Part shown: piece by piece, positions 1 through 29,438 of the stretch
How the letters are laid out: each line of letters begins with the position of its first letter
How positions within the stretch are numbered: the first letter of the stretch is position 1
Source of the DNA: Candidatus Parcubacteria bacterium
Lineage (GTDB): Bacteria; Patescibacteriota; Minisyncoccia; Phycocordibacterales; UBA918
Direction of reading: 5' to 3'
NCBI GenBank assembly: GCA_046050355.1
Contig: JBJOPW010000004.1
Location: forward strand, 13,755 to 77,754
DNA: 64,000 nt
The notes under the pieces: model-generated
What the model was told of the DNA's origin: nothing
Database searches by the model: none
The model's input: the letters and a program-made list of their open reading frames with translations, nothing else
Position numbers and translations under genes: made by a program

Positions 1-45
1 GAACGTTCGAGGATCATAGTGGGTCACCATCGGGGGCACTCAAGT
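1..45. repeat. left hybrid attachment site (host arm 1-18, core 19-27, element arm from 28)
   Basis: Core GTGGGTCAC; element arm CATCGG is the inverted repeat of CCGATG next to the right-hand core; overlaps the last codons of the recombinase. Confidence 0.8.
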
Positions 46-1444
46 CATTCTTGAGGTCCTGAAGCCAACTCTGTGGCTCCAAACATAACTCTCCTGGACT
101 GAGGGTTCGGTACGAGAAGAGATTTTGCACCATCTGACGTTTTTCATCGCCTATCGCCACTTTGTATTGCAGATCAAAGGTCGTTGCGAGTTCGAGGAAG
201 TTCTGTACGTCCTGTTCTGTCGGAAGGTTTTCGGTCAGTCGTGAGCGTTCTTGGGTGAGGTCAGCGAGTTCAAGTGTCATGTTCTGCTTCTTCGCCTCGA
301 AGTCTGGCTTTGAGATTGTGCCATCGATCAGTAGATCTGTAAGTCGATCCAAGCGCTGCTTCTGTTGTTCGATACGCAGGTCCAGCGACCGTCTGGTGCT
401 GTTGAGGTCCGGATCATGGATGAACTCTAGTAACGACGCACGGAGTACCTCTGCCTCTTCCTGCCTGAGTGCAACTGTCCGGAAACACTTCTCGACGGCC
501 TCTTCGATCTTGTCTTCTCGGATGGTTGTCGTTGGGCACGATGCTGTCTGGCATCGATAGTACACTCTGCCTTTCTGCCTCTCTGGAGAAAGTGGGCCGT
601 TACACAACGCACAGCGAAAAAGCCCGCGATAGCGATGGTTGTGGCGGGTGACCTTTTTTCCCGCCTTACCGACTTTCACGTCTTGGATGTTTCGATACGT
701 GCTCACAGTGATGAGCGGCTCGTGTATGCCGTCGTACGTCGCGCCGGTTTGCCTGATGCGCATGACCCCGCAGTAGAATGGGTTCTGCAGCATGGTTTCG
801 ATCCCATGCAATGAAAGACTTCTGCCCCGGTGGTTCTTTAGGCCGATGCGCACGGCTTCTCGGTGCAAGCTGCGAAGTGAGTGCTGTCCTGAGGCGTATT
901 TCTCCAGCAGGTCACGGACCAACGGAGCTTTCTCCGGGCAAGGAGTCTTTGGTTTTCCTCGCCCGTTGTCGAGATATCCCAAGGGTGCTTGGAAGGGATA
1001 GAGGCCCTGGCGCAGCCGACCGTCGATGCCCTTCTTCGTCTCTTCCCGGAGGTTTCGGATGTAGTCAGCTGCGATCACGGCTTGGATGTCCGCAGTTAGT
1101 CGCCCTCCGCGAGAACGGAAGTCGAGACTCTCAGTCGCGAAGTATACACCAACTCCCTTGTCGGAGAGTTCGCTGATGATCGCCCAATCCTTGAGATTCC
1201 GTGCGGACCTATCGATCTTGTGGATGATGAGGCCAGAAGCTTTTCCACGCTCCAACAATTTGAGCATCTTCGTGAACACTGGGCGGCCAGACTTCGCCGC
1301 CGTTTCCTTCTCTTCAAACCAGTCAGTAACTTGGAGATTGTTACGACTCGCAAATGCCGTAATAGCGTCCTTCTGAGCTTCGAGAGAAACGCCTTCTCCC
1401 TGCTTCTGGGTGGAAACCCGTATGTATCCAAAACACGACTTCAT
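14..1444 (-). CDS. large serine recombinase (resolvase + recombinase + zinc-ribbon/coiled-coil domains)
   Basis: N-terminal GYIRVST (catalytic Ser), KIDRSAR, APLGY, HEPLI, CALC...YYRC...C zinc ribbon, coiled coil. Confidence 0.95.
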   Translation of the reverse strand: MKSCFGYIRVSTQKQGEGVSLEAQKDAITAFASRNNLQVTDWFEEKETAAKSGRPVFTKMLKLLERGKASGLIIHKIDRSARNLKDWAIISELSDKGVGVYFATESLDFRSRGGRLTADIQAVIAADYIRNLREETKKGIDGRLRQGLYPFQAPLGYLDNGRGKPKTPCPEKAPLVRDLLEKYASGQHSLRSLHREAVRIGLKNHRGRSLSLHGIETMLQNPFYCGVMRIRQTGATYDGIHEPLITVSTYRNIQDVKVGKAGKKVTRHNHRYRGLFRCALCNGPLSPERQKGRVYYRCQTASCPTTTIREDKIEEAVEKCFRTVALRQEEAEVLRASLLEFIHDPDLNSTRRSLDLRIEQQKQRLDRLTDLLIDGTISKPDFEAKKQNMTLELADLTQERSRLTENLPTEQDVQNFLELATTFDLQYKVAIGDEKRQMVQNLFSYRTLSPGELCLEPQSWLQDLKNDLSAPDGDPL

Positions 1445-1587
1445 AGTTCGGTGTTGCTATCGTCGGATTCTATCAGATCTTTATTTTTTGGCGAATCACG
1501 CCACGGCCAAGATTGATCGCATAGCATCCGCAAGTAGATCTTCTTGCAGTGTTCAAGATGCGCTCTCAGAAATTCGTCGTGGTTCAT
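1441..1587 (-). CDS. small protein (48 aa, MNHDEFLRAHLEHCKKIYLRMLCDQSWPWRDS...) coupled to the recombinase
   Basis: Hand translation; GGAGG upstream; stop overlaps the recombinase start as ATGA; below the ORF-track length cut-off. Confidence 0.6.
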   Translation of the reverse strand: MNHDEFLRAHLEHCKKIYLRMLCDQSWPWRDSPKNKDLIESDDSNTEL

Positions 1588-1650
1588 CGAACCAGTCTAT
1601 AACCTCCAATTTCTTCGAATAGTCCGCGAGGTTTCGAGCTATTGCCTCTT

Positions 1651-3025: not shown

Positions 3026-3559
3026 ATGGGCTACGCTGTAGAAGACGACGAACTGGGTGGTATCGGCTATACCCCGACCTGCAAGAGTTGCGGTTCCGAA
3101 CATGTATCCAAGGATGCTTGGGCCTGTTGGAATCCGGCTACTGGGATGTGGGAACTCGAAACCACTTTCGATCATGAGTACTGTCATGTGTGCGAGGCCG
3201 ACACGTCGTTCACCTGGCAGCGAGTGGAGAGCGTTCCATCAAGGCGCGTTCGGGCCTTGAATGACAGGTTCCGCAAGGAAGGCGGAAAGGAACGGTCGGT
3301 GGTCGTCACCTCCGGCGTTCTGGCGCTCGGGACAGACTTCCTTGTCGCCGCGCTCGTAGCCATCCGGGACTTCGACAGCTTCACTGACGACAATGACCCC
3401 TGGGGCGAGCATGACTACGGGAAGGTCACCATCCACGGCCAGCCCGTCTTCTGGAAGATCGACTACTACGATCTCAACCTCGCGGGACGCTCATCCAATC
3501 CCGCCAACGACGGCGAGACGCATCGCGTACTGACCGTCATGTTGCCAAGCGAGTACTAA
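3026..3559 (+). CDS. DUF3768 family protein with N-terminal zinc finger
   Basis: CKSC...CHVC; RALNDRFR, DNDPWGEHDYG, FWKIDYYD, RVLTVMLPSEY. Confidence 0.85.
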   Translation: MGYAVEDDELGGIGYTPTCKSCGSEHVSKDAWACWNPATGMWELETTFDHEYCHVCEADTSFTWQRVESVPSRRVRALNDRFRKEGGKERSVVVTSGVLALGTDFLVAALVAIRDFDSFTDDNDPWGEHDYGKVTIHGQPVFWKIDYYDLNLAGRSSNPANDGETHRVLTVMLPSEY

Positions 3560-3952: not shown

Positions 3953-4303
3953 ATGTCCACCGAGTTTGCCCTGGACCTGCGCCTCGCGCGCCGGAAAGCA
4001 GGCTTCACGCAGCGCGACTGCGCACATTTATTAGCGATCTCTCCGTCGGTCTTGTCACAGATGGAAGGCGGCAAGCGCCTGCCGAGCATTCTTCAGATCT
4101 GCATGCTGTCCGTCATCTACGGTCGATCCTTCGAAAGCCTTTTTGGCTTTCTTCTTGACGAGGCTCGTGCCCAGCTCCGGACGCGCATTTTGAGCTTGCC
4201 TGAAGATGTCCGTCACTTCGCCGGGACTCGCAACCGCGACTACAGCATCGACCGACTGGCGCAGCGCTTAGCAGATGAGCAAGACGTACATGGCGGCGCT
4301 TAG
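3953..4303 (+). CDS. XRE-family HTH regulator
   Basis: LRLARRKAGFTQRDCAHLLAISPSVLSQMEGGKRLP. Confidence 0.85.
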   Translation: MSTEFALDLRLARRKAGFTQRDCAHLLAISPSVLSQMEGGKRLPSILQICMLSVIYGRSFESLFGFLLDEARAQLRTRILSLPEDVRHFAGTRNRDYSIDRLAQRLADEQDVHGGA

Positions 4304-5575: not shown

Positions 5576-5935
5576 ATGCGAATTTCGATCTCTCACCATG
5601 ATGTCCGTAAGGGACTATTGTTCAGGAAGACTATGCACGAAGTCCACTTGTCGGTGGCCTTCACCCACGAAGAAAAGCAGATTGTGCGCCAGCGCCGTCT
5701 AGGGGATCAGGTCATCCTGCAGCGCCGTCCGGCGAACGCCAAAGTTGATGATCGCGACAGTAAGTTCGTCCTGCGACTAGGTGACCTGCTTGACGGTCGT
5801 ACCGACCGCTTTCTCCTCGCAACACCATCTGCAGCAAAAATCTACGAGGAAGACCTGATCCGAATGTTGGCCCAAGTGAAGCTTTGGATTTCAGACAATG
5901 CAGAGACCGCAGGTCGGACGGTGATTGAACTTTGA
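5576..5935 (+). CDS. hypothetical protein
   Basis: GGAG RBS; 4-bp overlap with the downstream ATPase. Confidence 0.7.
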   Translation: MRISISHHDVRKGLLFRKTMHEVHLSVAFTHEEKQIVRQRRLGDQVILQRRPANAKVDDRDSKFVLRLGDLLDGRTDRFLLATPSAAKIYEEDLIRMLAQVKLWISDNAETAGRTVIEL

Positions 5936-8016
5936 GCACAGAACGCGAGATCAAGGAGTTCTTCAACTCGACGCTCGGATTGGGCGTCCTTTTTGTTTTC
6001 CTCCTCCTCGGCGTGGTAGTTGCACCGATATTCCTCATAGGGGCAGCGGTCTATGTAGTGGGTCGCCTTTATCTTGAAAACCCCGCCAGACTGGAGCGGG
6101 TAGCGAGACGAGAGACAGAGATCCTATACAATCACGCGCTCGCCGGGCAAGTTATCTTGAGCCGTGATGATATTGATGAAATCTTGTCAGCTAGCTGGCC
6201 GGAAGAATTGCCATTTCCAACGCGTGCACAGCTGCTTGATCTTGGCTATGAGCTTTTCCGAGACGAGGGACTTAGTCCAGACATTCCACCAGTTCCGGCA
6301 CTTTGCAACACGGTGGAAGGGGCAAGATACCGCGACCTGCTTGCGAGACTAGGACAAGCGCGAACGGATCGTGTGATGGTTACCGCCGCTCTTTCGCAAA
6401 TTGGAGAAAGTCTTTCGGTCGTCGCGCGGGCAATTCCAAACCTTGATGGAGATGTACTTGTTTCTGTCTCTCAGTTCTTGGAACCGGTTGGTCCGACCAT
6501 CGAAGAGATCATTGCGCCCTTTTATAGGGAGACTGGCTATATCCATTTCAAGGCTCTGAGGGAACGCCTCGATCAGAACTTGGAACGGACCCATCGGACA
6601 AACCCGGTCTTTCCCCGCGACTACAAGGGTACTGATGCGGTTGAAACCTACTTGGCTGGTACCCGGCTCAAAGCTCTCTTCAGCATCAAGACGCCCTTTG
6701 AGATCCCCGAAGCTTCACGCTTCGAGCATGTGCACATGGTTGCGGGAACCGGTCACGGGAAGACTCAGACGCTCCAATACTTCATCGCTAAAGACCTCCT
6801 CGACGTCGCGCGGCGTGACAAGTCCATTGTCGTCATTGACAGTCAGGGCGACCTGATCAGAACGATCCTCGCAGCCAAGCACCTTCCCCCCGAGCGCATC
6901 GTCTTGATCGATCCGGAGGACATTGCGTTCCCGGTAGCTCTCAACTTGTTTTCGGTCGGCCAAGAACGTCTCACGGGCTACAGCGCGGTCGATCAGGAAC
7001 GGCTCACCAACTCGATCCTGGAGCTCTATGACTTCGTGCTGGGGTCACTCCTTGGGTCGGGGATGACGTCGAAGCAGAACGTCATCTTCCGCTATGTCAC
7101 CAGGCTCATGCTTCATATACCGGACGCTACGATCCACACCCTTCGGGAGCTCATGGAGCCTGGAGGGACGGTGAAGTATCAAGACGCTATCGACCGGCTG
7201 GATGGAACCGCGCGCAAGTTTTTCGCCAGCGAGTTTGACGGCAAGGAGTTCACGAACACAAAAGCGCAGGTCCTACGTCGCCTCTATGGTGTGCTGGAGA
7301 ACCGTACCTTCGAACGGATGTTCTCGCACCCAACTTCACGCTTCGACATGTTCACCGAGATGAACGCGGGGAAGCTCATTCTGATCAACACGGCGAAATC
7401 TCTGCTGAAAGAACAAGGCACGGAGATCTTCGGCCGCTTCTTCATCGCCCTGATCGCTCAGGCCGCGCAAGAACGTGCCACCCTGCCAGAGTACGACCGG
7501 CTCCCGTGTATGGTTTTCGTGGATGAGGCCCAGGACTACTTCGACGAAAACATCGGGATCATCCTCAGTCAGGCACGCAAGTATCGGGTCGGCATGACAC
7601 TGGCACACCAATATCTTGGACAACTGTCTTCCTCGCTTCAGGAGGGCGTTGAGGCGAACACGGCAGTCAAACTTGCAGGCGGTGTCTCGGCTCGGGACTC
7701 CCGTGCTCTTGCAGGACAAATGGGGGCTGACCCCGACATGATCGCCCGACAGCCAAAGGGAACGTTTGCTGCCTTTATCCGTGGCGTCACAGAGAAAGCA
7801 GTCCCGATCTCGTTCCCGTTCTTTGTCCTAGAGAAATCAGAGAAGACGACAGACCAAGAGCGGGCCGAAATCCGGACTTTCAGCCGCAATGCCTATGCGC
7901 ACGCCTGGGATCGTCCCGAAGAAGACCAACAGCCGACGGAAGCGAACAGCGACATTCCTTCCGGAGGTTCAAGAGACGACCGCATAGACCCACTTTCTCC
8001 TTCCACAGAGCTATGA
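5932..8016 (+). CDS. membrane-anchored VirD4/TraD-like coupling ATPase
   Basis: N-terminal TM region; Walker A AGTGHGKT, IDSQGD, Walker B FVDEAQ, SQARKY..LAHQ. Confidence 0.85.
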   Translation: MSTEREIKEFFNSTLGLGVLFVFLLLGVVVAPIFLIGAAVYVVGRLYLENPARLERVARRETEILYNHALAGQVILSRDDIDEILSASWPEELPFPTRAQLLDLGYELFRDEGLSPDIPPVPALCNTVEGARYRDLLARLGQARTDRVMVTAALSQIGESLSVVARAIPNLDGDVLVSVSQFLEPVGPTIEEIIAPFYRETGYIHFKALRERLDQNLERTHRTNPVFPRDYKGTDAVETYLAGTRLKALFSIKTPFEIPEASRFEHVHMVAGTGHGKTQTLQYFIAKDLLDVARRDKSIVVIDSQGDLIRTILAAKHLPPERIVLIDPEDIAFPVALNLFSVGQERLTGYSAVDQERLTNSILELYDFVLGSLLGSGMTSKQNVIFRYVTRLMLHIPDATIHTLRELMEPGGTVKYQDAIDRLDGTARKFFASEFDGKEFTNTKAQVLRRLYGVLENRTFERMFSHPTSRFDMFTEMNAGKLILINTAKSLLKEQGTEIFGRFFIALIAQAAQERATLPEYDRLPCMVFVDEAQDYFDENIGIILSQARKYRVGMTLAHQYLGQLSSSLQEGVEANTAVKLAGGVSARDSRALAGQMGADPDMIARQPKGTFAAFIRGVTEKAVPISFPFFVLEKSEKTTDQERAEIRTFSRNAYAHAWDRPEEDQQPTEANSDIPSGGSRDDRIDPLSPSTEL

Positions 8017-8034: not shown

Positions 8035-8916
8035 ATGGGAAAGCTGGATGCTCTCGGTCGCGCAACATTCCATCACATAGCTGAACAATCAGCTGTGCGG
8101 GTGACGAATCGCGAGCTTGCTTGGCTCGCGCACATCCATCGACATGGCCCCCAGTCGTCCACAGCGCTGTATGATTTGACGGTTTCCACGCACCGCTGCC
8201 GCGACACTAGTCTCCGCGCCCTTCAGCGGCTTCGTGCTGGCGGTGTCCTTTCACTCCCTCGCCAACAGCGCATGACCGAAAGAGCGGAGTTCAATCCGTA
8301 CATTTACGATGTCACTGAGTTGGGCAAAGGCCACTTGGAAAATCGCGATCTGCTTGAACCCACTCTCCGCCCAAGTGGGCATTGGTGGCACGCTTACGGT
8401 GTCGGTGCGATCACAGCCGCCATCGAGCGCCGCGGTGCCGAGAAAGGCATTCGCTACATACCGCCTCAGTCAATCTTGGCGCGGGCAAGATGCGAACTTC
8501 CGCTACCCACACCTGCTGGCATGGTCATTCCGGATCAGCTATTCGCCTTGGACTACGGCGGCACCTTCAGAGCCTTTATGCTGGAGCATGACCGTGGGTC
8601 TGAACCGCTGTCTTCAAAGGCAGCACGTGAAAGCCTGGAACGAAAACTTCATCGATACTCGACGGCTGCATCCAGCGATTTGCATCGTCGGCACTATGGC
8701 CTGAAGTCGCCGCTTGTCTTGATGTTCACCTTTGCGTCACGAGCGCGAGCCGCGCGGTTCTTAGACCTTGTCACCACGAAGTACCCGGTACTGTCTTCCA
8801 TCGTCATCTTCGCCATTCTGAACGACGATGATCCACTGCTTCTGTGTTCTCGGGACATTGTCTTGGGTCCCTGGCAACGCGGGTCCGGTGGAACTTTCGA
8901 GCTATTCCAATCCTAG
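8035..8916 (+). CDS. replication-relaxation (Replic_Relax) family protein, putative relaxase
   Basis: N-terminal winged helix, HWWH, IPDQLF, LEHDRGSE motif; directly after a coupling ATPase. Confidence 0.75.
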   Translation: MGKLDALGRATFHHIAEQSAVRVTNRELAWLAHIHRHGPQSSTALYDLTVSTHRCRDTSLRALQRLRAGGVLSLPRQQRMTERAEFNPYIYDVTELGKGHLENRDLLEPTLRPSGHWWHAYGVGAITAAIERRGAEKGIRYIPPQSILARARCELPLPTPAGMVIPDQLFALDYGGTFRAFMLEHDRGSEPLSSKAARESLERKLHRYSTAASSDLHRRHYGLKSPLVLMFTFASRARAARFLDLVTTKYPVLSSIVIFAILNDDDPLLLCSRDIVLGPWQRGSGGTFELFQS

Positions 8917-18653: not shown

Positions 18654-18819
18654 GTGGACTTTTGCCTTGCCTGAAGAGTCGTCGTATGTGGTTGATTTTT
18701 TATGGGAATCCATGCCTTTTCTAGTCTCATTATCATTCCACAGATCGAGACTACAAGCAAAGGTTGGGTGACCGGATTCTGCAGACCCGGCCACCCGCGC
18801 TCCCACAAGGGGAGGGTCG

Positions 18820-19005: not shown

Positions 19006-19199
19006 GATCTCTCCATGGTGAAGAGCATCGCGATGCCCAGGGTTACGACGTTCCTAGGTGTGAGGAGAGTAGTGCGAGATTAGTTGCCATGCCATAGAGT
19101 TGTGCCGCTCTTGATCCGTTCCTGCATGGCCAGTGTGCGCTTTGATTGAACCGGGATAGGGTTTTCGATTAGACTCCTGCACATGAAATGGAGGTACGA

Positions 19200-19517: not shown

Positions 19518-19589
19518 TCTCGTGGTGCGATCATACTCTCAGGCGCGGCCACGGCTGCGCTTGGGCCGCCTAGATCGTTGATCGACCGG

Positions 19590-19833
19590 AGGTGGTCTAG
19601 AAGGTGGACCGGATTCTCAGCGCTCTACAAAAGCTATATTTTTCAGTGCATTGGAAAATTTAGTGGTGCCCAGAGCCGGAATGGGATTGCCGGAACATTC
19701 CAACACATAGCCTTGCATTTTCAATTTCTTAGACCAAGTCGCGGCTCCAAGGGCAACACATCGCCGAACATCGCTGAACATACAATCACAACCCTTGAGG
19801 TGGACTAAAAGGTGGACTAGAAAAGGTGGACTG
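19590..19833. other. attP-like site of the tyrosine integrase (arm - tRNA 3' core - arm)
   Basis: AGGTGGWC arm repeats at 19590, 19602, 19798, 19810, 19824; core 19664-19682 is the reverse complement of ATTCCGGCTCTGGGCACCA, a tRNA 3' end with CCA; ACATCGCYGA tandem repeats at ~19758-19777. Confidence 0.75.
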
Positions 19834-19845
19834 CGGGAGGATTCG

Positions 19846-21006
19846 ATGGTTCTCTTGAACAGCCTGAACCCACTGAAAGCAAAGAACCTAGTCGCAGGAA
19901 AGCACGCTGACGGCCAAGGACTTTGGCTAGTGAAGAGTGAGCGCACTCGGGGAAAGTGGGTTCTCCGCGTTGTCGTCCAAGGAAAGCGTCGGGAAATGGG
20001 TTTGGGCCGGTGGCCTGACGTCTCCATTGCTGAAGCGCGTGAGTTGGCCGCGGAGGCGCGGAGGAAGCTCCGGACAGGCATCGATCCGATAGCTCAACGT
20101 GTTGAAGGCCGGAAGAAAGTCGTACGCCTAACGGTACAACAAGCAGTGGACGCGTGCTTCGAGGCACGAAAAGCAGAACTCAAGAGCGACGGCGAGGCGG
20201 GTCGCTGGATGTCTCCGCTCTCAGTCCACGTGCTGCCGGTGATTGGAAAGACTGCGATAGAGGACGTCGATCAACATGTGCTGAAGAAAGCTTTGGAGCC
20301 CATCTGGCACTCAAAGGCCGACACAGCTCGAAAAGCTCTAAACCGCCTCAGCTTGACCCTAAAGCATGCGGCTGCACTTGGACTGGAAGTAGACCTCCAG
20401 GCAACGATGAAGGTCCGGGCTCTCCTAGGCAAACAAAGGCACGTGTCCGAACACATTCCTTCGATGCCATACAAAGACGCACCGGCCTTCTATCGCTGGC
20501 TCTCCGAACAGACCTCGGCGGCAGCCCTACCGCTTCGCTTCCTCATTTTGACAGCTGCCCGAACTGGAGAGGTGCGCTATGCTCGGCATAGCTACATTGA
20601 GGACAAAGTTCTTACACTCCCTCCCGAGATCACAAAGACCGGGCGTGAACACAAAATTCCGCTTACATCGGAAGCCGCAGCAGTGATCAACGCTGCGAAG
20701 CTGCAAGACAGCCAGGACCTGTTGTTCCCTTCCCCAACCGGAAAGACCTTCTCTGATGCGACAATGTCACGATTAATGCAGCGTGAAGGCCTAGTTTATA
20801 GGCCCCATGGCTTCAGGGCCACATTCCGGACGTGGGTCGAAGAACAAACTGACACTCCTCTCGAAGTGGCTGAGGCCGCACTCGGGCACGTCGTAGAGGG
20901 ACAGGTCATCCGGGCCTACCAACGATCTGATCGACTTGAGAAACGACGATCCTTGCTAGTCAAATGGAGCAAGTATCTGCAAGACACAGGACACCCCAAC
21001 CCATAG
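19846..21006 (+). CDS. P4-like tyrosine integrase with arm-binding domain
   Basis: GGAGG RBS; HADGQGLWL, REMGLG, R(TGE), HGFR, LGH, catalytic Tyr in RAYQR. Confidence 0.95.
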   Translation: MVLLNSLNPLKAKNLVAGKHADGQGLWLVKSERTRGKWVLRVVVQGKRREMGLGRWPDVSIAEARELAAEARRKLRTGIDPIAQRVEGRKKVVRLTVQQAVDACFEARKAELKSDGEAGRWMSPLSVHVLPVIGKTAIEDVDQHVLKKALEPIWHSKADTARKALNRLSLTLKHAAALGLEVDLQATMKVRALLGKQRHVSEHIPSMPYKDAPAFYRWLSEQTSAAALPLRFLILTAARTGEVRYARHSYIEDKVLTLPPEITKTGREHKIPLTSEAAAVINAAKLQDSQDLLFPSPTGKTFSDATMSRLMQREGLVYRPHGFRATFRTWVEEQTDTPLEVAEAALGHVVEGQVIRAYQRSDRLEKRRSLLVKWSKYLQDTGHPNP

Positions 21007-21021
21007 CAACCAAAAATACGG

Positions 21022-21783
21022 TCAAAGCCTGATTATTGTATCCTGAACCTGCAGAGCGCTCATCGCCGAGCAGAACTCAGTCAAGCCAAAGTCTCGATTA
21101 AATCGGTCATTAGACTCATGAACCAAAAGCGTCTTCGCCGCGAAGACAGCGCCCGAATCACGTGCGAGTACTATAGCTCTCAAGTACTTCCGGTCCAAAT
21201 CTCCAGAAATGCTACCAGACACAACCCGAAGATAACTGGTGTCTGCTCCTACAACATAGACACGATCTGCCTGGCAAAAGTAATAACCCTGATGATCGGG
21301 GTCAACGCTTTTCCGAGCAACTTGGAATGGAGAAACGTCATCATCACCGATCGATCTGTAAGCGTCAAAGAACTTATCGAAGTTCTTGCGCTTAATGAAA
21401 TTCATGAACCGGAATAGACCACAGTACTCAAAGAAAATTAACCCTCCAGAAACTAAGTCCCCAAACCCATCCGACCGGTAATAACGAAATGCACCAAGCA
21501 GAGTCCGTGCCTGCTGAATAGACTGACTATCTATCCCCAGACTCTCGCTAAGCGCTGAGTACGTTCTAAATTGCCTGTTTGGAACTCTCAAACACACGTC
21601 AACTTTTGCAAGAGACGAAAGTTCAACTTCTTCCCCCCTATAGATTTTTTCAAGTGTCGCAATGTCTGGCGCACGCGAGCCAAAGACCTTCTTGAACGCC
21701 CGAGCAGTCTTGAAGCCGTCCGCTACCGCTCTAGCCAAAACTTCATCACCGACCAACGTTCGAGCGCCTGACTTCAACACCAC
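21022..21783 (-). CDS. hypothetical protein, possible HTH + beta-rich ligand-binding domain
   Basis: PDIATLEKIYRGEEVELSSLAKV resembles the XRE recognition-helix region; beta-strand-rich C-terminus; divergent from the radical SAM operon. Confidence 0.55.
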   Translation of the reverse strand: MVLKSGARTLVGDEVLARAVADGFKTARAFKKVFGSRAPDIATLEKIYRGEEVELSSLAKVDVCLRVPNRQFRTYSALSESLGIDSQSIQQARTLLGAFRYYRSDGFGDLVSGGLIFFEYCGLFRFMNFIKRKNFDKFFDAYRSIGDDDVSPFQVARKSVDPDHQGYYFCQADRVYVVGADTSYLRVVSGSISGDLDRKYLRAIVLARDSGAVFAAKTLLVHESNDRFNRDFGLTEFCSAMSALQVQDTIIRL

Positions 21784-21988
21784 TACCCACTCCCGAATCT
21801 AACGATTCCTCATCAAATCGCAAGATTCTCATACCAGTCCCGGCACTGCAAGATCAAGTCGCACGAGCGAGGTAACGATCCCAACAAACAACTGAAAATC
21901 GGTGTTTTACCAGTGACTCGTAGGCGTGCGACCATGGAGCCGCAGATGAGAGCAACTGATCTGCGCGAACGTAGACGGGAGGAACAGA

Positions 21989-23317
21989 ATGCGCATCGCA
22001 ATGGTTTACCCAGAAGTCTTCGACCTTGCACGGTTCAATGAAAAGCGGAAAGAGTTTCCGCCTTTTGGGGTAATGTACCTATCCGCCATGATGGAGCAGG
22101 CAGGGCACGTTGTCCAAGTATTTGCCATATCCTTCGAAACGAGTGCGATCGATTTCCGAGGCTTCGATGCAGTAGGATACTCCATCCCATCATCAGCAAC
22201 TTTTGGTATAACAAAGAAGGTACGGTTTGCTAGTAAGTACGACGAGGGGGCACTGATCATGGCTGGTGGAGTACACGCAAACCTTTACCCACTGCAGACT
22301 CTGGATGAATTGGAACCGGACGTTGTTGGCATTGGTGAGTGCGAACAGACCATACTCGACATCTTGGAGAGGGGTAAGAATGCGGATTTTGGTAACATCC
22401 TCGGAGTCGCCTTTAAGAAGAACGGGGAAGCAGTGAAGACACCTCCTCGTCGAGTAGATAAAGACATTGACTGGCTTCCACTTCCATCCCGACACCTCCT
22501 GCCTCGGTCAGACATTGTGATGAGCAATCGACTATCTAACACGGACATCGAAATGGCCCACGTCATGTTCACACGTGGATGCCCGTTTCCGTGCAGGTTC
22601 TGTGCAGTTGCGCAAACTAAGATACAGTATCGCTCAGGCGCCAGCGCAAGACGTGAAATAGTTCACCTAATGGAAACTTATGGAATAGGTGGTTTCGCCA
22701 TTGTCGATGACAATTTCATCGTTGACAAGCGTAAGGTTCATGACGTAGCCGAAAGCATCCAAGACCTCGGTGTAAAATGGTCGGCTCTTTCCCGAGTCGA
22801 CACCATTGACAAAGAACTGCTCACGGCAATGGCCTCATCCGGATGCATCGAAATTAAGTTTGGAATGGAGTCAGGGAGTCAGAGAATTCTTGATGCAATG
22901 CAGAAAAACACGACCCCGGAACAGATCCTAGAGGCCGCAAGGCTTTCATATGAAGCCGGCATCAAGGCCAAGTTCTTTATTGTTCATGGTTATCCTGGTG
23001 AAAACATGGAGACCACAGCCGAGACAATCGCCCTCCTTGATAGAGCTAAAAGATATGTAGATCGAGTTTCGCTCTTCAGGTTTGCCCCATTGCCGGGGAC
23101 ATATGTCTACAATCACCCTGAAGAGTTCGGCCTCCGGGGAACGGACCGGCAAGCAGACTGGGATGGCAACTGGGATAAATATCATATTTATCACAATGCG
23201 TACCACTGGTGGGGAACGGATGATCAATTTGAAGAGCTGAACAGGGCGCACACGGAGATCTCCAACTATATTGACGAAACTTGGCCAGCGACTTTTCAAC
23301 CGCCCCAAAATGTGTAA
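21989..23317 (+). CDS. B12-binding radical SAM enzyme
   Basis: GGAGG RBS; PPFGVMYL, AGGVHA (cobalamin domain); RGCPFPCRFC; DDNF; GMESGSQRIL; GYPGE. Confidence 0.92.
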   Translation: MRIAMVYPEVFDLARFNEKRKEFPPFGVMYLSAMMEQAGHVVQVFAISFETSAIDFRGFDAVGYSIPSSATFGITKKVRFASKYDEGALIMAGGVHANLYPLQTLDELEPDVVGIGECEQTILDILERGKNADFGNILGVAFKKNGEAVKTPPRRVDKDIDWLPLPSRHLLPRSDIVMSNRLSNTDIEMAHVMFTRGCPFPCRFCAVAQTKIQYRSGASARREIVHLMETYGIGGFAIVDDNFIVDKRKVHDVAESIQDLGVKWSALSRVDTIDKELLTAMASSGCIEIKFGMESGSQRILDAMQKNTTPEQILEAARLSYEAGIKAKFFIVHGYPGENMETTAETIALLDRAKRYVDRVSLFRFAPLPGTYVYNHPEEFGLRGTDRQADWDGNWDKYHIYHNAYHWWGTDDQFEELNRAHTEISNYIDETWPATFQPPQNV

Positions 23318-23327
23318 AACTTAGAGA

Positions 23328-24074
23328 ATGGAGAGGATTGGAACTGTAGAAGCGGTGTTCCTACGCAAGGCACATGGCCGTGCTGTTGAGGAATCAACAG
23401 TCCTCAACTTAGTGGCTGATTTCGGGATCGTAGGGGATATCAACTTCTCGGCTTCGTCGCCTCGCCATTTGCTACTTAAGAGGATTGGACGTCCAGGCGA
23501 TTGGACGGACAACGCCGGTTACTTCAATGAAAACGTTTCTTTCACTTCTGAAAGTCTGAATTCGCTTCGTCCGGGAGACATCGTAAGAGTTGGCTCCGCA
23601 ACTCTCCTCGTTCGTTCAAAAAATGAGCGGTGCAACATTTTTGCGCCAGAGGTCCGCGTGGCACGAGGCCTTCATTGTGTTTGCATAGACGCCGGATCCA
23701 TTCGTCGTTCGGATGACATCATAAAGCTCGGTAGCGTTTCTATCGCAGAGGACAGTCGCGCGGCACTATTGGTAACGGGCCTCAGGGCTGTTCCGCTCGG
23801 AAGAGTGGTGACTTTTGAAGATGCATGCACTATGATTGGTGGCAGCCGCCCACACTTGCGGATCATTCCAAGACTGCTAAAGATTGCAATTACTTTGCAT
23901 CCAACTGGGGTTCCATTTCACAGGTTAGTCAAATCTAAGGGTGATCTAATTGACAACATTGTCACTGATCAGATGCTCCTCCTGGCGGCGGAAGGTATAT
24001 CGACTTCAAACGGAAGAACTGTAAATCTTCAGTTCCGTCATGTTTTCGGGAGAAACCCATTTTGCGAAATGTAA
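23328..24074 (+). CDS. MOSC domain fused to an alkyltransferase-like (ATL/MGMT-fold) domain
   Basis: GIVGD, ENV, LRPGDIVRVG, GSIRRSD (MOSC); VPLGRVVTF...PFHRLV...LAAEGI (ATL, no catalytic Cys). Confidence 0.7.
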   Translation: MERIGTVEAVFLRKAHGRAVEESTVLNLVADFGIVGDINFSASSPRHLLLKRIGRPGDWTDNAGYFNENVSFTSESLNSLRPGDIVRVGSATLLVRSKNERCNIFAPEVRVARGLHCVCIDAGSIRRSDDIIKLGSVSIAEDSRAALLVTGLRAVPLGRVVTFEDACTMIGGSRPHLRIIPRLLKIAITLHPTGVPFHRLVKSKGDLIDNIVTDQMLLLAAEGISTSNGRTVNLQFRHVFGRNPFCEM

Positions 24075-24478
24075 GCTGCTTTGTCTCGATGGCAATTGAA
24101 GCTCGTGAAGCACTTAGTGAAGAGCTCTCCGCAATTAAGAGTGTGTGCAGTAGATTTGGTGTTAGAGCCCATGTCTTCCTAGATGAATACTCATTTGAGA
24201 AAGGCAAAGAATCCCAAATGATGGCGGAGGTCGTTTCGTGTATTAATGGCTGTGATTTCTTGATTGCTGAAGTAAGCAAGAAGGCGATTGGGGTGGGGTG
24301 TGAGGTTGGCATCGCTGCAGCATTGGGAAAGCCGGTGATCTATTGTCGGCAGGCAGGGAGTCCAGCTTCGCTGACGGTTGGCGGACTGGCAAGTTTTACT
24401 CTGACTTATAGTGAAGCCAACGAACTTGCGCGGAAACTAAGTTTCGTATTAGAGAACAGGTTCTTCGAGTCCGACTAG
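24062..24478 (+). CDS. nucleoside 2-deoxyribosyltransferase/N-glycosidase fold protein
   Basis: CDFLIAEVS..IGVGCEVGIAAALGKPVI; overlaps the upstream stop. Confidence 0.85.
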   Translation: MRNVSCFVSMAIEAREALSEELSAIKSVCSRFGVRAHVFLDEYSFEKGKESQMMAEVVSCINGCDFLIAEVSKKAIGVGCEVGIAAALGKPVIYCRQAGSPASLTVGGLASFTLTYSEANELARKLSFVLENRFFESD

Positions 24479-24573
24479 ATTTCGATGCTACTTGGACCGG
24501 ATCCCGATCTTTTATCTGGGTGTCCGGCATCTAGTGTCTTAGTCAAGGCAATGAGAATTCATTGAAGTGAGGA

Positions 24574-24603
24574 AGTTTGAGAAGTGTTTCGAAGTGGGTC
24601 ACA
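24574..24603. repeat. internal copy of the right attachment site
   Basis: AGTTTGAGAAGTGTTTCGAAGTGGGTCACA matches 29107-29136 at 27/30, same orientation. Confidence 0.85.
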
Positions 24604-24909
24604 TTTTGGAAGTTTCGGAGCCTTCCTCGTTGCTCCGGCTCATTGTTTAACTTGATGACGGTCGCCGTCACGGGTCAGTGTGTTGATCGTACAGGATCCA
24701 TGAGTGGGGTTTCGAAGCGGTCCCTGCATACCTTGGAGTTCCGGGTAGCTCGGGTGGAGGATAGTGATATTCGAGGCGCTCTCCCGTGTGGAGTGCTCGC
24801 CAATGACAGTTTGGTCGCGCATGCTGTCAGGCGCAGGACGCTAGAAGACCCTCATTGACAACTCATGGTATAGTATCTATGTCTTACTAGCTAAATGTAG
24901 AGGTAAACC

Positions 24910-25152
24910 ATGTCCGAGAAATACAAATTCAAAGTTGAGAATGAAACCTACGAGTGGGGCGATGCAACCATCACCGCAGCGGAAGTACGCGGGGTCGGTC
25001 CAGGGATTCCTGATAGCATGGATCTCTTTGTGAAGCTTCCCGGAAAGCCTGCGCGCTTAGTGTCGGATCCAGGCGAAGTCTTTGATCTCTCGAAGCCGGG
25101 AATCGAGAAATTCTTTGCGCAGAACTCATCGTCGGAAGCGGGCGCCAACTAA
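24910..25152 (+). CDS. ubiquitin-like protein (multi-ubiquitin-type beta-grasp, single domain)
   Basis: YKFKVE..YEW...IT...FDLSKPGIEKF; ends EAG-AN, consistent with a pro-form Gly tail. Confidence 0.8.
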   Translation: MSEKYKFKVENETYEWGDATITAAEVRGVGPGIPDSMDLFVKLPGKPARLVSDPGEVFDLSKPGIEKFFAQNSSSEAGAN

Positions 25153-25154
25153 TT

Positions 25155-25562
25155 ATGCCGTTATTGTTCGAAGATGACTACGAGTACTTGAAAAGTACTG
25201 GGCTAAAGTACGATGAGTACACGGACCAGCGCTTCTTGGTGGTCAGGGCTTACCCCGTTCCGGAGGGTAAGTACATCTTCGAAGGACAACCGGTTCGGAC
25301 GGTCGATGTCCTGTCCATTATCCCGCCAAACTACAACACCGAAGGCTGCGACATGTTCTGGGTGCACCCAGCGATATCGCGTGCTGATGGAAAGCCCATT
25401 CCGGCAACTGGCGGCGACGACAGAGTCTTCGACAACACGACCTTCGTTCGTTGGTCCAGGCACTGGCCTGCCGGTCGATGGAGACCCAAGGTTGATACAA
25501 TAGAGACCATATTGAGCCGTATCGACTGGGCCTTGCATAACCCAGACCCTGCTGAAGCATGA
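25155..25562 (+). CDS. prokaryotic E2 (family E) conjugating enzyme
   Basis: YPVPEG, IPPNY, DMFWVHP, RWSRH, WRP..DTIET. Confidence 0.85.
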   Translation: MPLLFEDDYEYLKSTGLKYDEYTDQRFLVVRAYPVPEGKYIFEGQPVRTVDVLSIIPPNYNTEGCDMFWVHPAISRADGKPIPATGGDDRVFDNTTFVRWSRHWPAGRWRPKVDTIETILSRIDWALHNPDPAEA

Positions 25563-27010
25563 GCCAACCCCGCATCACCCTCCTGCAATCACATCGAGAG
25601 CGCTTGGAGCGTTGGTTACCGTCTCATCCAGAGCATCACGAACGTGCCGCTGTAGTACTGTTCCGCTCGTTTGCACGAGAGGTACTGGAACAGACTCAAT
25701 CAGAACGGCTCGTCTCGGTCGACGTGATCGAAATGACTGATGACTGGCTCGTGGAGAGCTCAGTCATCAGTGTCAAAGTCAACCTTCGAAAGCTTGTGGA
25801 TCTGTATTTCCGCTGTGAGCAGGAGGGCTTACACTTAGGCTTCGTACATAGTCACCCACTTGGTGCTGACGCCTTCTCGGGTCAGGACGATCAGAACGAA
25901 CAAAACATCTTGCGGGGCTACGCTGGCTGCAATGGACGAGACTCAAGATTGGTGGCTCTTGTCTACGTCGACGGCGAGTGGATTGGTCGGGTGCGTTATG
26001 CGACCAAGCCAACCGAGAGCTCGCCTGTTCGTCACATACTTACACTGGGGGAAACCCTTGCTGTACACCATTTGACCAACCCGGAGGGTGATCTGGCTAC
26101 ACTGGAGCGACAGGCGGCCGCTTTCGGTCGACCATTTAATCAAAAGCTTCAGTCTCTTAGAGTTGCAGTGGTTGGGTGCGGAGGTACCGGCTCACCAACT
26201 GCTACCCTTCTGGCTCGCGCAGGTGTCGGCGAACTTATTCTCATTGATGGTGACAACCTAGAGGAAAGCAATCTCAACCGGGTTCGAGGCTTGCGGAGAG
26301 ATGATGTCGGACACAACAAGGCAGAGAGGCTGTGTTCGTACATCCGCTCCTTATCCCTGCCAACATCCGTGTCGTTTGTCCCCAATTATCTTGAGGACAA
26401 TCGGGCAGCTGTCGACGCACTTTCCTCAGCCGATGTCGTATTCGGCTGCACCGACACCGTGGCAAGTCGAGAACTCTTAAACGAGGCTCTGTACTATTAT
26501 GGGTTTGTGCTCATTGATTGCGGACTGTCGGGAGAAGTTGCCAGCACTGCTGATGGGAAACCAAGGCTCATTGAGCATCGCGGTCGCGTAAGCACCGTGC
26601 AGCCCGAAACTGGAGCTTGCCTGCGCTGCCAAGGGGTCGTCACAGACAACAAACTGAGATACGAGAGAGCGGTCAACGAGAACCCAGAGCTCAAGAAGCT
26701 CGACGCCAAAACGCTGCTCCGCGAACATTATCTAGTTGGCGGAGGCGAAGCCGCTCCGGGGGTCGGACCGTTCACTAGCGCAACTGCCGATCTTGCTGTC
26801 TCCTCACTATTTGAACTCATTCATCCATACAGACAACTGGGCGGCGATTTCCGTCCTGACAATATTTGGCAAGATTACTTGCATATGACTTATCACAGTA
26901 ACGAGCCCCGAAACCTTTCTGCCGATTGTTATTGCTGTGGCACGCGCGCGATCCTACTGAAGCGTGAGCGTCAAGTTCTACTGGACAGACCGGCACTTGG
27001 TACGATTTGA
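25559..27010 (+). CDS. JAB peptidase - ThiF/E1 fusion
   Basis: E...HSHP...FSGQD (JAB); GCGGTG, DGDNLEESNLNR, GCTD, CLRC (E1). Confidence 0.9.
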   Translation: MSQPRITLLQSHRERLERWLPSHPEHHERAAVVLFRSFAREVLEQTQSERLVSVDVIEMTDDWLVESSVISVKVNLRKLVDLYFRCEQEGLHLGFVHSHPLGADAFSGQDDQNEQNILRGYAGCNGRDSRLVALVYVDGEWIGRVRYATKPTESSPVRHILTLGETLAVHHLTNPEGDLATLERQAAAFGRPFNQKLQSLRVAVVGCGGTGSPTATLLARAGVGELILIDGDNLEESNLNRVRGLRRDDVGHNKAERLCSYIRSLSLPTSVSFVPNYLEDNRAAVDALSSADVVFGCTDTVASRELLNEALYYYGFVLIDCGLSGEVASTADGKPRLIEHRGRVSTVQPETGACLRCQGVVTDNKLRYERAVNENPELKKLDAKTLLREHYLVGGGEAAPGVGPFTSATADLAVSSLFELIHPYRQLGGDFRPDNIWQDYLHMTYHSNEPRNLSADCYCCGTRAILLKRERQVLLDRPALGTI

Positions 27011-27011
27011 T

Positions 27012-27446
27012 ATGAATCTAGGCATTCCCAAGATATTTCTAAACTTCTGGAAGAAAGCACGGCTTCCAGAAATCCAAGAACCTACCAATCATGTGAGGCA
27101 CTATCAAGCTGCCCTGATCTTGGAAAGAACACCAAGCAACTCGGCAATCGGAGATCGCGATTTTGTATTCGTGATCTATGAGACCGTTCCACGGTGGGCA
27201 CTGTTTCGATGCCCCTGCGGCTGTAGCGAAGTCATCAGCCTACCCCTAGCTGCTCCACACAATCCTCGATGGGCCGTCTATGTCGACGAGGATGGCTTCG
27301 CTTCTCTGTATCCATCCGTTTGGCGCAACACTGGCTGCATGAGTCACTTTGTAATTCGCTCAGGATGTGTATTCTGGGCGAATAAGAGCGGGGTCAGCCC
27401 ATTTGAAGCCAGCCCAAATTTCTATAAGCCTCGCATTCCCAAGTAG
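27012..27446 (+). CDS. DUF6527 family Cys/His metal-binding protein
   Basis: CPCGC, SLYPSVW..GCMSHF. Confidence 0.85.
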   Translation: MNLGIPKIFLNFWKKARLPEIQEPTNHVRHYQAALILERTPSNSAIGDRDFVFVIYETVPRWALFRCPCGCSEVISLPLAAPHNPRWAVYVDEDGFASLYPSVWRNTGCMSHFVIRSGCVFWANKSGVSPFEASPNFYKPRIPK

Positions 27447-27460
27447 AAGGGACGTGAGCT

Positions 27461-28882
27461 CTAGTATTCCCAGCGAACAAAATAGCCAGACCGTCCATAG
27501 CAGTCGTATCCGCGCTTGTCCTTATGTGCCTTGAGCATTGTCCCGGAGCTCTTCCTCTTGAACTCTTTTCCGCAGTAGGTACATGCGATCACCTGAAGGG
27601 GTCCACCAGAGTAGGTTGAAGGCCTGCGATTCACTCGACCCGCCGAACTTCCTCCTCGCTTTGTCTGGGCACCAAGCCGACCGCCTCCTCCAAAGTAGGA
27701 ATTTTCTGGCAGCTCACCTGCTTTTGACAGTTCGACCTCGAAGCGCGGTTCGAACTTTTCTTCAAGTATCTGTGGCTTCTCAACTTTTGGATTAACCAGG
27801 GACTTGATTCCGGTTGACCCTGAGGCACCTCCAGTTCGATCCCACACATAGAAGTATTCGCGCGGAGACCCGTCCGATGGACGTTTGTAGCTTAGAGCGT
27901 AAGGTTCGACGACCCTCTCGTATCCGTCATAGGTTAGTCGGATAAGCCGTTGTTGAGACCCGGCTTCCAAGAAGACGTTACGAAGTTCTGCCGGAAAGAA
28001 GGCATCGCTTATGCGATCTGCCATACCGCTCGTTTCGAATACACTATCGACGAACCGCGTGTACGCTTCTGTCGCGGTGTCGAAGTCTATTTTGCTTGCT
28101 GCCGGGCAAACTATGTATTTCTCCCATGCCGCCCGGAAGAAGGCCATGGGGAGACCAAGGAGTATTTGCCGAGCTGAACCCGGACTTCGTTCAAAGATGG
28201 TCTTCTTGAGAAAGACGCTTGCAATTGTTGATCGATCAAGGTCAATCCGATCATCAAAGAACGCAGCGTAAACTAGATCGTAGAGATCATGGGAGTGACG
28301 ACGTTGCAGCAAGCATTTGAGCTTAGATGCCATGCCCTCTTCGAGAGCAACACATCTAAGATTTACTCTGCAGACATCTGAATCCGAATATGGATGAATA
28401 AGTGGAACCGTGCTCACTGGAAGATACAAGCGGTCGAACTCTGTCACATCCATCCGAACTGAAATTTCCAGCGCGCTTTTCTGGCCATAGAAATCTTCGA
28501 AGAAGACCTTTCCCTTGTAGATTTTTCTGTCGGTGTTTTTGCCGAGATTGGCCCGTGCGGCTTCTTTGAAAGAGCTTCTCTCACTTACAAACTTGATACC
28601 CGATACAGCTTGAGCCATCTTGCAGCTACGTTCAATTTGAGCAGTCAGTTCATCCAAGTCAACTGCACGTTCAGTTGAGAAATCCAGGTCAGAGGAGAAC
28701 CTGGTGTTCGGAAAGTACGCTTTTCGGAAGCAGTTTCCGCCCTTTAGGATGAGAAGGTCACTGAGATACTCATTTTGGTATATTGCAAACAGGAGCCAGC
28801 CGAAGACGTAGTCACGCTGAACATTCGAGGTATTGATCTCGAATTCAGCAGATTTCTGGTCGATTTCATCTCTCTCGATCAT
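27461..28882 (-). CDS. AbiEii-type nucleotidyltransferase fused to WYL domain and C-terminal Zn finger
   Basis: LKGG..RFSSDLDFS, K..RR..HDLYDL; LTYDGYERVVEPYAL (WYL); CTYC..H..C. Confidence 0.85.
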   Translation of the reverse strand: MIERDEIDQKSAEFEINTSNVQRDYVFGWLLFAIYQNEYLSDLLILKGGNCFRKAYFPNTRFSSDLDFSTERAVDLDELTAQIERSCKMAQAVSGIKFVSERSSFKEAARANLGKNTDRKIYKGKVFFEDFYGQKSALEISVRMDVTEFDRLYLPVSTVPLIHPYSDSDVCRVNLRCVALEEGMASKLKCLLQRRHSHDLYDLVYAAFFDDRIDLDRSTIASVFLKKTIFERSPGSARQILLGLPMAFFRAAWEKYIVCPAASKIDFDTATEAYTRFVDSVFETSGMADRISDAFFPAELRNVFLEAGSQQRLIRLTYDGYERVVEPYALSYKRPSDGSPREYFYVWDRTGGASGSTGIKSLVNPKVEKPQILEEKFEPRFEVELSKAGELPENSYFGGGGRLGAQTKRGGSSAGRVNRRPSTYSGGPLQVIACTYCGKEFKRKSSGTMLKAHKDKRGYDCYGRSGYFVRWEY

Positions 28883-29106
28883 GTGACTACTCTACACCAA
28901 ATCCCAAGCTACGGCACCTTAAGGCGATGATGACGGTTTGGCCAAGGAACACAACCCGTATGGCACCTCTATGCTGCATCTGCTGTGTCTTGAGGCTTTT
29001 GATACTTCAAATTGTACTGCCACTGCGGGATCTTATTTGGAGTACACGCTGGTCTTTTAGGACAGAAGGTTAGAAGGTGGCTCAGGGACGTCTTCATCTC
29101 CTTTAG

Positions 29107-29150
29107 AGTTCGAGAAGTGTTCCGATGTGGGTCACACTGGCGGCAAAACC
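29107..29150. repeat. right hybrid attachment site (element arm, core 29127-29135, host arm)
   Basis: Core GTGGGTCAC at the point where pyrE-like sequence ends. Confidence 0.8.
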
Positions 29151-29438
29151 GGTGGCGGCAGTGGGGATGCCGATGATGATGGGTTGACGCCTTTCATCAT
29201 CGGACAAAATGTCGCAGATGCGTTTGCCGATGAATCGTCCGCACCGCTCAGTCAGGGATGGGTTGTCGGTCAGGTCGCCACGACCATTGAAGTAGATGTG
29301 GCTCGCTACACCGCTTTTCAGTGTGAACGGATCTTCTGTCCACACCAACATTCCATATTTGACCATTTCACGGATCAGGTCGATCTCCTCGTTTTCGAAG
29401 CGACGACCTGCACCGAATGGTGAAGTAAGTTCTGGCAA
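29127..29438 (-). pseudogene. pyrE: 5' part of an orotate phosphoribosyltransferase-like gene interrupted by the element
   Basis: FTLKSGVASHIYFN and IIGIPTAA; the PRPP-binding motif is missing; frame continues as YDPRTF in bases 18-1. Confidence 0.7.

Follow-up and report, generated by a model that had tools for sequence, protein, structure and literature searches.

Large serine recombinases such as those of phiC31, Bxb1 and Listeria A118 (LI integrase) share a three-domain build of Resolvase, Recombinase and zinc ribbon, and the phage-type members act on short and simple attachment (att) sites of imperfect dyad symmetry around a short common core. In attP the recognition motif is displaced outward by ca. 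5 nt relative to attB, a rule that reportedly stems from structural work on the LI integrase. An attP located inside the integrase gene is described for tyrosine recombinases of Mx8 and SSV, which both target tRNA genes. The attP sites of Mx8 IntP (PMC6070905, PMC4383910) and of SSV-type integrases (PMC4383910) lie within the integrase gene, which receives a new 3′ end after integration. In a 2014 reference work on tRNA-targeting islands, serine integrases are referred to as not known to use tRNA genes. The DNA analysed here, hereafter the window, is a 64,000-nt stretch from Candidatus Parcubacteria bacterium (G000:C4:13755-77754, with 13.7 kb of contig left of window base 1), and it harbours a 29,108-bp island (window 19/28-29135) which was probably put into a PyrE-like gene by its own serine recombinase, at a tRNA look-alike sequence serving as pseudo-attB.

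The locus agrees with the phage-type serine integrases in domain build, in the short and simple att sites and in the outward position of the attP motif, and differs from them in that attP is situated inside the coding sequence of the enzyme, with the consequence that integration alters the protein, in that the site imitates a tRNA 3′ end, and in that the element is a non-phage island with an additional tyrosine integrase. The gene-spanning attP is shared with Mx8 IntP and SSV, whereas their tyrosine recombinases have a fold and chemistry unrelated to those of the serine recombinase. As in the tRNA-targeting islands of Islander, relatives are found at tRNA 3′ ends and attP contains tRNA-like sequence; unlike in these, the tRNA-like part is longer by 5-6 nt and the target is not restored in the window, where the host gene stays broken. 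Among named recombinases, XisF and CcrB/CcrA gave the best NCBIfam matches, but these and TnpX/TndX differ in their targets and element types. In the open literature, with subscription journals and supplements outside reach, neither a serine integrase with attP inside its own gene or targeting tRNA genes nor such an island in Patescibacteria was found; the catalogues of TIGER and of Durrant et al. may contain serine integrases of such kinds. To our knowledge, rewriting of the enzyme by its integration state is known only for tyrosine integrases.

The island is delimited by two copies of a 9-bp core, GTGGGTCAC, and both of its ends were fixed to the base by independent sequences. On the left, blastn homology of a Rhodobacteraceae contig from a metagenome-assembled genome (MAG; L005, 82.6% over 3,811 nt) and of Albidovulum sediminis (L006) to the window ended exactly at base 19. 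On the right, a 7,815-bp contig of a different sequencing run (X5) matched 27162-29135 (1,974 nt, 110 differences) and its match ended exactly at 29135, the loose end of the contig beyond this point being the antisense of a recombinase 3′ end. The motif GTTCGAG was present at 5-11 and 29108-29114, and CATCGG at 28-33 mirrors CCGATG at 29122-29127, which places imperfect dyad symmetry around the 9-bp shared core in the rebuilt attP. An earlier note, made from the letters of the sequence alone, had located the two cores, the GTTCGAG motif in both arms and the symmetry, and had concluded that a real site-specific integration with deducible attP and attB was at hand; a motif search recovered both cores, the motif positions were reproduced, and the conclusion was borne out by the exact split of the host gene, by the two boundaries and by the attP data of the recombinase family. 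Three core matches were counted against 0.37 expected, three being attained in 1 of 100 shuffles, and the 9-mer occurred 10 times in the whole 0.94-Mb genome. TTCGA at most 30 nt upstream of the 9-mer accompanied only both junction copies and one further copy internal to the island (0 of the 7 remaining copies).

The PyrE-like gene was cut by the insert exactly in frame. Its N-half aligned to residues 5-104 of the intact homologue P0007 (242 aa) with 51% identity. Extension to the left of base 1, proposed as a check in the earlier note, gave the rest of the protein in the minus-strand frame (141 aa in all, VTHYDPRTF...QVA, stop), and this C-half aligned to P0007 residues 102-242, also with 51% identity. 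When queried against 1.84 billion representative proteins, the C-half returned 113 relatives at E ≤ 0.001, mostly of 220-250 aa, P0007 being the best. In alignment A2 (8 sequences) the halves overlapped only at V-T-H, i.e. the codons of the 9-bp core, and the homologues ran ...AASVTHYD... or ...AACVTHYN... uninterrupted across the join; the insertion is thus precise and keeps the reading frame, and removal of the element joins the gene as had been claimed.

The gene should not be named pyrE, as it had been, because its scores are far below the PyrE cut-offs: against TIGR00336 (PyrE) the halves reached 27.4 and 20.4 bits and five intact homologues 27-54 bits, with a cut-off of 106.8, and Pfam Pribosyltran gave only 15 bits against a cut-off of 26.3. 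Of the former designation, the split of the gene stands and the identity as true PyrE does not. In type I phosphoribosyltransferases, the phosphoribosyl pyrophosphate (PRPP) loop follows a pattern of a hydrophobic run, two acidic or amide residues and a T/S-G-rich loop, and the PRPP-loop-like stretch IYFTIENVVTSGGS of the C-half appears compatible with it. Named relatives of the split protein were ‘Patescibacteria group bacterium’ and ‘Candidatus Parcubacteria bacterium’, and the target is best regarded as a putative Patescibacteria-specific PyrE-like phosphoribosyltransferase rather than a bona fide PyrE.

An intact orthologue that spans the join uninterrupted, P0244 (locus tag _833), adjoins MiaA (P0283, _834) on the same 9.5-kb contig of a Parcubacteria MAG, an order mirrored in the genome of the window, in which miaA is located just beyond the C-half. 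Of 30 genomes of the genus, 26 had MiaA. The occurrence of the PyrE-like gene was patchy, as it was found in none of 40 relatives searched (24 of them of the same genus). In G007 and G041, miaA was followed after ca. 0.9 and 2.3 kb, respectively, by a homologue of window open reading frame (ORF) 30746-31363, and synteny with both resumes at window 30746. No phosphoribosyltransferase fragment was detected in the 80 genome loci best matching the recombinase, and the recombinase relatives therefore do not share the PyrE-like target. A 379-aa methyltransferase-fold protein (window 29578-30717, plus strand, GC content 0.40) adjoins the split gene, was found in none of 30 genomes of the genus, and represents a second strain-specific gene at this spot.

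The recombinase had matches to PF00239 Resolvase (110.8 bits, cut-off 23.3, residues 5-147), PF07508 Recombinase (40.4 bits, cut-off 21.1, residues 170-255) and PF13408 Zn_ribbon_recom (41.5 bits, cut-off 25.3, residues 273-319), and it contained the motif YIRVSTQKQ with S11, which is near-invariant in alignment A1. With these domains the enzyme is by definition a large serine recombinase, and its sites behave as those of that family. It is not XisF, CcrA/B or another named equivalog, because its NCBIfam scores (XisF 110.5 bits, CcrB/CcrA ca. 76-79 bits) are far below the equivalog cut-offs of 375, 900 and 700. The Pfam scan of 28 element ORFs revealed no recognisable directionality factor.

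The ORF of the recombinase crosses the core and terminates at a stop codon at 14-16 in host DNA. Relatives with 69-97% identity (P0119-P0125) were compared at the protein level; the closest, P0119 (97%, 529 aa), P0120 (91%) and P0121 (90%), run past the truncation point as ...GDP-(H/L)RNTSRT..., and many family members end in PQWKYNLKNQ. The missing continuation was found at the other end of the island, where the minus strand from 29135 to 28977 encodes DP-HRNTSRT...IPQWQYNLKYQ, i.e. 52 residues after GDP which match the tails of P0119, P0121 and P0122. At the DNA level, 22 of the 24 post-core nucleotides of L005 (recombinase 89% identical in amino acids) were the same as window 29126 to 29103. 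Since both element ends are contiguous in the relatives, attP lies within the recombinase gene, and L005, L006 and the contig of run X5 confirm its junction. Integration is predicted to cut ca. 52 residues from the recombinase, the full form of ca. 527 aa being readable only across the circular junction. The statement of the earlier note that the element supplies a recombinase together with its att pair thus holds for the att pair, while the ORF in the window is truncated at 476 aa. A metagenome scan gave no recombinase relatives above 59% identity among the matches listed.

In 59 family loci with a G-x-P-x-R...R-T tail, the codon for the core Gly was GGT in 59/59, in comparison to 20% of upstream Gly codons in the same genes, and the Arg codon at +24 nt was CGA in 58/59, in comparison to 15% upstream. 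At the 45-65% protein identity prevailing among these loci silent sites should be well mixed, and the codon counts argue that attP is conserved as DNA. The conserved letters have a counterpart in tRNA genes: in antisense, TGGTG corresponds to the ..CACCA of a tRNA and TCGAAC to the T-loop GTTCGA. In tRNA terms, the GTTCGAG motif of the arms is thus equivalent to the antisense T-loop, and the site as a whole is a tRNA look-alike.

In four relatives the recombinase ORF ran directly into an antisense tRNA gene, namely tRNA-Ala (L119), tRNA-Arg (L120), tRNA-Leu (L131) and tRNA-Gln (L173). The first three were among the 160 loci fetched, whereas L173 belongs to another Patescibacteria genome and its recombinase is 46% identical. 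The P0125 tail, GDPTENRTP, has the same tRNA-type look in protein sequence only. Because relatives abut antisense tRNA genes, tRNA 3′ ends are taken as the natural attB of the family. With the first G of GGTG taken as position 1, the start of TCGAAC falls on nt 18 in L119, L120 and L173, on nt 19 in the host site and on nt 24 in attP (58/59 loci). The 5-nt displacement of GTTCGAG between the two arms, pointed out in the earlier note, is thereby recovered in the family, of which it appears to be a rule, and the host site, having nearly the geometry of a real tRNA, is read as a pseudo-attB. Sorting of the 160 recombinase tails by regular expressions (71 / 15 / 68 / 6) was too crude and was used only to pick loci; many tails of the class ‘other’ still carry the motif. 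In Thetidibacter halocola (L033, 11340-11680), the recombinase gene has an intact attP-type site, and an antisense tRNA-Lys is situated 200 nt beyond it.

In the proposed course of events, the element’s own large serine recombinase would be the catalyst; its attP occupies part of the last ca. 80 nt of the recombinase gene. The opposite strand of attP mimics a tRNA 3′ end: GGTG of attP corresponds to ..CACCA and TCGAAC to the T-loop GTTCGA, and this T-loop motif is 5-6 nt further from the crossover than in a real tRNA. An alphaproteobacterial-type circle would have been opened at this serine site when the enzyme took a look-alike site in a host gene, with 9 bp identical to the attP core and GTTCGAG at near-tRNA spacing. 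Strand exchange in the 9-bp core, presumably at an exact 2-bp crossover, would have split the host gene and replaced the last ca. 52 recombinase residues by a single Leu and a stop.

The same arrangement might have been produced by a low-specificity ‘serine transposase’ of the type of TnpX (Tn4451) or TndX (Tn5397), inserting the circle at loosely similar sites that are no true attB. Such an enzyme would fit the protein-coding target here beside four different tRNA genes in relatives, as well as a recombinase gene that is the outermost one of the element and becomes complete across the circular junction: the TndX gene likewise lies at the element end, and Tn4451 similarly creates the tnpX promoter across its circle junction. 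However, of the 7 core copies outside the element’s own sites only the used site has the T-loop motif at tRNA-like spacing, and the attP of the family is long, conserved and of fixed geometry, as for a site-specific integrase. Apparently one copy of the element is present in the genome, a whole-genome search having 2 matches listed, one of which is the window’s own gene. An insertion of the transposase kind is therefore considered unlikely, and site-specific integration by the serine recombinase is retained.

Among the 80 genome loci best matching the recombinase, 79 had alphaproteobacterial or ‘Pseudomonadota’ titles and 1 a Bryobacterales title. The backbone of the island (recombinase, ATPases, DUF3768, tyrosine integrase and AlpA-like region) matched islands of Rhodobacterales and other Alphaproteobacteria, and its DNA was 65-83% identical to those genome loci. 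A plasmid collection yielded 10 records, each covering at most 16% of the backbone. In Patescibacteria, large serine recombinases as a class are frequent, since 243 of 400 other genomes gave a match at E ≤ 1e-10; there are often several matches per genome, some near contig ends.

The family could alternatively be resident in Patescibacteria, or be exchanged in both directions, so that no recent alphaproteobacterial import took place and the integration maybe happened in another lineage of the Candidate Phyla Radiation (CPR). In favour of this are the 46%-identity member at tRNA-Gln in another Patescibacteria genome, the 90-97% identical recombinases from contigs without known host, and the GC content of the element (0.537), which falls between that of the rest of the host genome (0.480) and the 0.59-0.60 of the isolates’ loci (L005, 0.546). 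Yet among the matches listed for the 400 Patescibacteria genomes all but one had 25-36% identity, and the backbone proteins were without match in the genome carrying the tRNA-Gln insertion. The alphaproteobacterial preponderance of the best loci, the backbone DNA identity, an H-NS gene and a match to a Ruegeria small RNA (sRNA) point in the same direction, and residence in Patescibacteria is accordingly given little credence. Import from an alphaproteobacterium would be the preferred source of the island, for which its GC content above that of the host also speaks.

In 23 of the 160 loci, the serine recombinase was followed at 0.5-7 kb by a tyrosine integrase homologue (57-84% aa identity) in convergent orientation. 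In 5 of these 23 (L009, L045, L054, L058, L083) a tRNA gene was present at most 400 nt from the start of the tyrosine integrase. In those relatives the serine attP is complete, and it seems to be the tyrosine integrase that holds the island; the element of the window then reads as such an alphaproteobacterial island circularly permuted and opened at the serine site. The arrangement of P4-like islands, with the integrase beside its target tRNA at the island end, was not seen in the window, where the tyrosine integrase is internal. A search for its attP compared the tRNA 3′ ends of L009, L045 and L054 with window 18700-21100; no clear tRNA fragment was found in this region, only short repeats (17-21 nt) that are shared upstream of the integrase start and that we read as putative arm-type sites. 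The segment 18767-19060 was considered as the attP of the tyrosine integrase and was rejected, as it corresponds to a conserved small ORF, AlpA-like by our reading, with similarity to an sRNA family of Rfam.

That the tyrosine integrase or some other route made the insertion, with the serine recombinase merely located at the end, is very improbable. The element does encode a tyrosine integrase that is intact, arm-binding domain included, and that adjoins tRNA genes in relatives. In the window, however, 19.8 kb separate it from the left junction and 8.1 kb from the right one, while in 5 of 23 relatives no more than 400 nt lie between the integrase gene and its tRNA target. No tRNA gene was found in window 1-29135, and it is precisely the conserved site terminating the serine recombinase gene that contains the junction.

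Seven sequencing runs were available as Logan assembled contigs. A contig of run X1, which may be the source sample, spanned 19000-31479 and thereby the right junction with 0 differences, at a depth of 12.4 against 11.5-13.8 for host contigs; because of this agreement the element is taken as single-copy in the X1 population. Run X2 had no cover over 19000-30951 at a host flank depth of 14-20, and 0.99 of the 24500-34000 words were present in X2 according to the index, so that this run supports no inference of an empty site. An assembly or binning artefact, i.e. a proteobacterial segment misjoined into a CPR contig, hardly deserves consideration in spite of the 17-contig metagenome assembly and the deviating GC content, as the flanks are exact in-frame halves of one gene, the common 9 bp are far below assembly overlaps, and the X1 contig crosses the junction at host-like depth.

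Several observations weigh against integration by the serine recombinase at a pseudo-attB. The integration was deduced from assembled contigs and no reaction was observed. The three closest recombinases (P0119, P0120, P0121) come from contigs without known host, and L005, the best named relative, is itself MAG-derived. The 59 loci used for the codon counts are mutually related, for which reason the counts are not independent events, and the shifted motif was seen in only one of two half-site pairs. Most relatives, namely the 59 loci whose attP-type site is intact, did not integrate by way of the serine site. Finally, two host tRNA-Glu genes resemble natural targets: they end ..GTAGGGTCAC(CA), also written ..GTTCGATTC(C/T)CCGTAGGGTCAC(CA), in close similarity to the attP core and with natural tRNA spacing (G000:C3:28326-28400 and G000:C12:7860-7932), and both are unoccupied in the assembly, although a protein-coding site was used.

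Taken further, the data might describe a clade of tRNA-targeting serine recombinases with attP in their own 3′ end, in which swap or removal of the C-terminal tail acts as a built-in switch, with a tyrosine integrase as a second way in and with transfer from a Rhodobacterales-like donor to Paceibacteria; as a joint proposition this is tentative, and doubtful rather than probable. If it were true, the circle form would be integration-competent and the integrated form excision-competent or silent, in a serine-family analogue of Mx8 IntP where attP inside the enzyme’s own gene lets the integration state rewrite the enzyme. The tyrosine integrase would give the island two alternative entries into chromosomes. 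The hosts of Paceibacteria are mostly unknown, and an alphaproteobacterial import could point to a Paceibacteria host and a route of DNA entry, as the physical trace of a contact, perhaps by conjugation, of a CPR episymbiont with its host. Short att sites and independence of host factors make serine integrases valuable tools; the present recombinase comes with a deducible attP, one used target and a natural target class, and five family members appear to use tRNA genes, four by DNA and one by protein sequence only. The interest of the locus resides in the intragenic, tRNA-mimicking attP, in the dual-recombinase island and in its presence in a CPR genome, more than in one further integrase.

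The internal copy of the core with a degenerate far arm, which is absent from the earlier note, is not due to chance. In it the invariant TCGAAC reads TCAAAC, and to its left (ca. 24480-24573) a decayed relic of a recombinase tail, TSQTSSLQ*ILIALTKTLDAG, was recognised by comparison with the P0122 tail, TSRTSSLPKILSAISRILDAG. This arm copy and the right end of the element bracket a 4.5-kb ubiquitin-like/AbiEii module. What relatives in runs X4 and X5 have in common with the element is this module alone, from ca. 24.8 kb on, which suggests gain of cargo at attP. The ubiquitin-like module with AbiEii recurs at ca. 94-99% identity in biofilm metagenome contigs and in the coded ‘organism A’ (X4, X5).

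Table 1. Features of the island, its junctions and the split host gene, in window coordinates (strand and evidence as far as given).
Feature	Position	Strand	Evidence or remark
Host arm, left junction	1-18	minus	First post-core codons (YDPRTF) of PyrE-like C-half, which continues to G000:C4:13359
Large serine recombinase, 476 aa as integrated	14-1444	minus	Resolvase + Recombinase + Zn_ribbon_recom
Core GTGGGTCAC, left junction (attL)	19-27		Motif match; L005 and L006 homology ends here
Recombinase-side arm of attP	28-70		Recombinase 3′ coding end; CATCGG at 28-33
P-loop ATPase (AAA_22, TrwB-like matches), backbone	1651-2805	minus	93% aa to L005
DUF3768 protein, backbone	3026-3559	plus	Pfam and relatives
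Helix-turn-helix (Xre-type) regulator	3953-4303	plus	Pfam
Type IV coupling-protein-like ATPase	5932-8016	plus	Weak T4SS-DNA_transf, DUF87, TrwB matches
Replication-relaxation family protein (Replic_Relax)	8035-8916	plus	Pfam
Type III restriction-modification pair: Res 9817-12810, Mod 12822-14684	9817-14684	minus	Pfam, PADLOC
DUF4391 protein 14701-15465 and SNF2-type helicase 15462-18806	14701-18806	minus	Pfam, PADLOC
Rfam RF02649 (Ruegeria trans44 sRNA) match	18774-19035	minus	174.6 bits; overlaps conserved 61-aa ORF 18820-19005
H-NS C-terminal domain protein	19188-19517	plus	Pfam
Tyrosine integrase (Arm-DNA-bind_3 + Phage_int_M + Phage_integrase), internal	19795-21006	plus	Pfam
Cargo: B12-binding radical SAM, MOSC/DNA_binding_1 (weak matches) protein, nucleoside 2-deoxyribosyltransferase-like	21989-24478	plus	Pfam
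Degenerate far attP arm and core (core 24594-24602)	24574-24602		26/29 nt identical to 29107-29135
Ubiquitin-like conjugation module: Multi_ubiq, Prok-E2_E, JAB-ThiF (E1-like), DUF6527	24910-27446	plus	Pfam, PADLOC
AbiEii-family nucleotidyltransferase	27461-28882	minus	Pfam, PADLOC
Far arm of attP, element right end	29100-29126		Minus strand encodes HRNTSRT (family-conserved recombinase continuation); 22/24 nt identical to L005
Core GTGGGTCAC, right junction (attR)	29127-29135		X5 contig matches to 29135, then diverges
PyrE-like N-half, 104 aa, ends ...AASVTH	29127-29438	minus	Translation and alignment

The gene calls of Table 1 were based on Pfam scans of the 28 element ORFs and on a PADLOC scan. 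Neither a complete type IV mating-pore set nor VirB4/TraC-type or pore proteins were found among these ORFs, and the island is at most mobilisable and not an integrative and conjugative element because the mating-pore genes are lacking; with a relaxase-family protein and a coupling-protein-like ATPase it is probably mobilisable. The 61-aa ORF under the RF02649 match we read as AlpA-like from its translation, and what this Rfam family represents may be an island gene for a protein and not an sRNA. The cargo trio at 21989-24478 may form a module for nucleoside or DNA modification.

The host genome (939,894 bp in 17 contigs) was assembled from metagenomes and rated 99.97% complete, and the defence-laden 29-kb island makes up 3% of it. 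The MiaA beside the insert was 77% identical to the nearest named MiaA, of ‘Candidatus Paceibacteria’, and we assign the host to the Patescibacteria, as a member of the Paceibacteria type. An identical sequence of at least 55 nt containing the 9-mer core was located near the ends of three contigs (G000:C13:~32687, C16:~95, C17:~95), where a repeat probably interrupted the assembly. A match to group I introns (Rfam RF00028, 79.2 bits) was identified outside the island, in host DNA of the window, at 54356-54598 on the minus strand.

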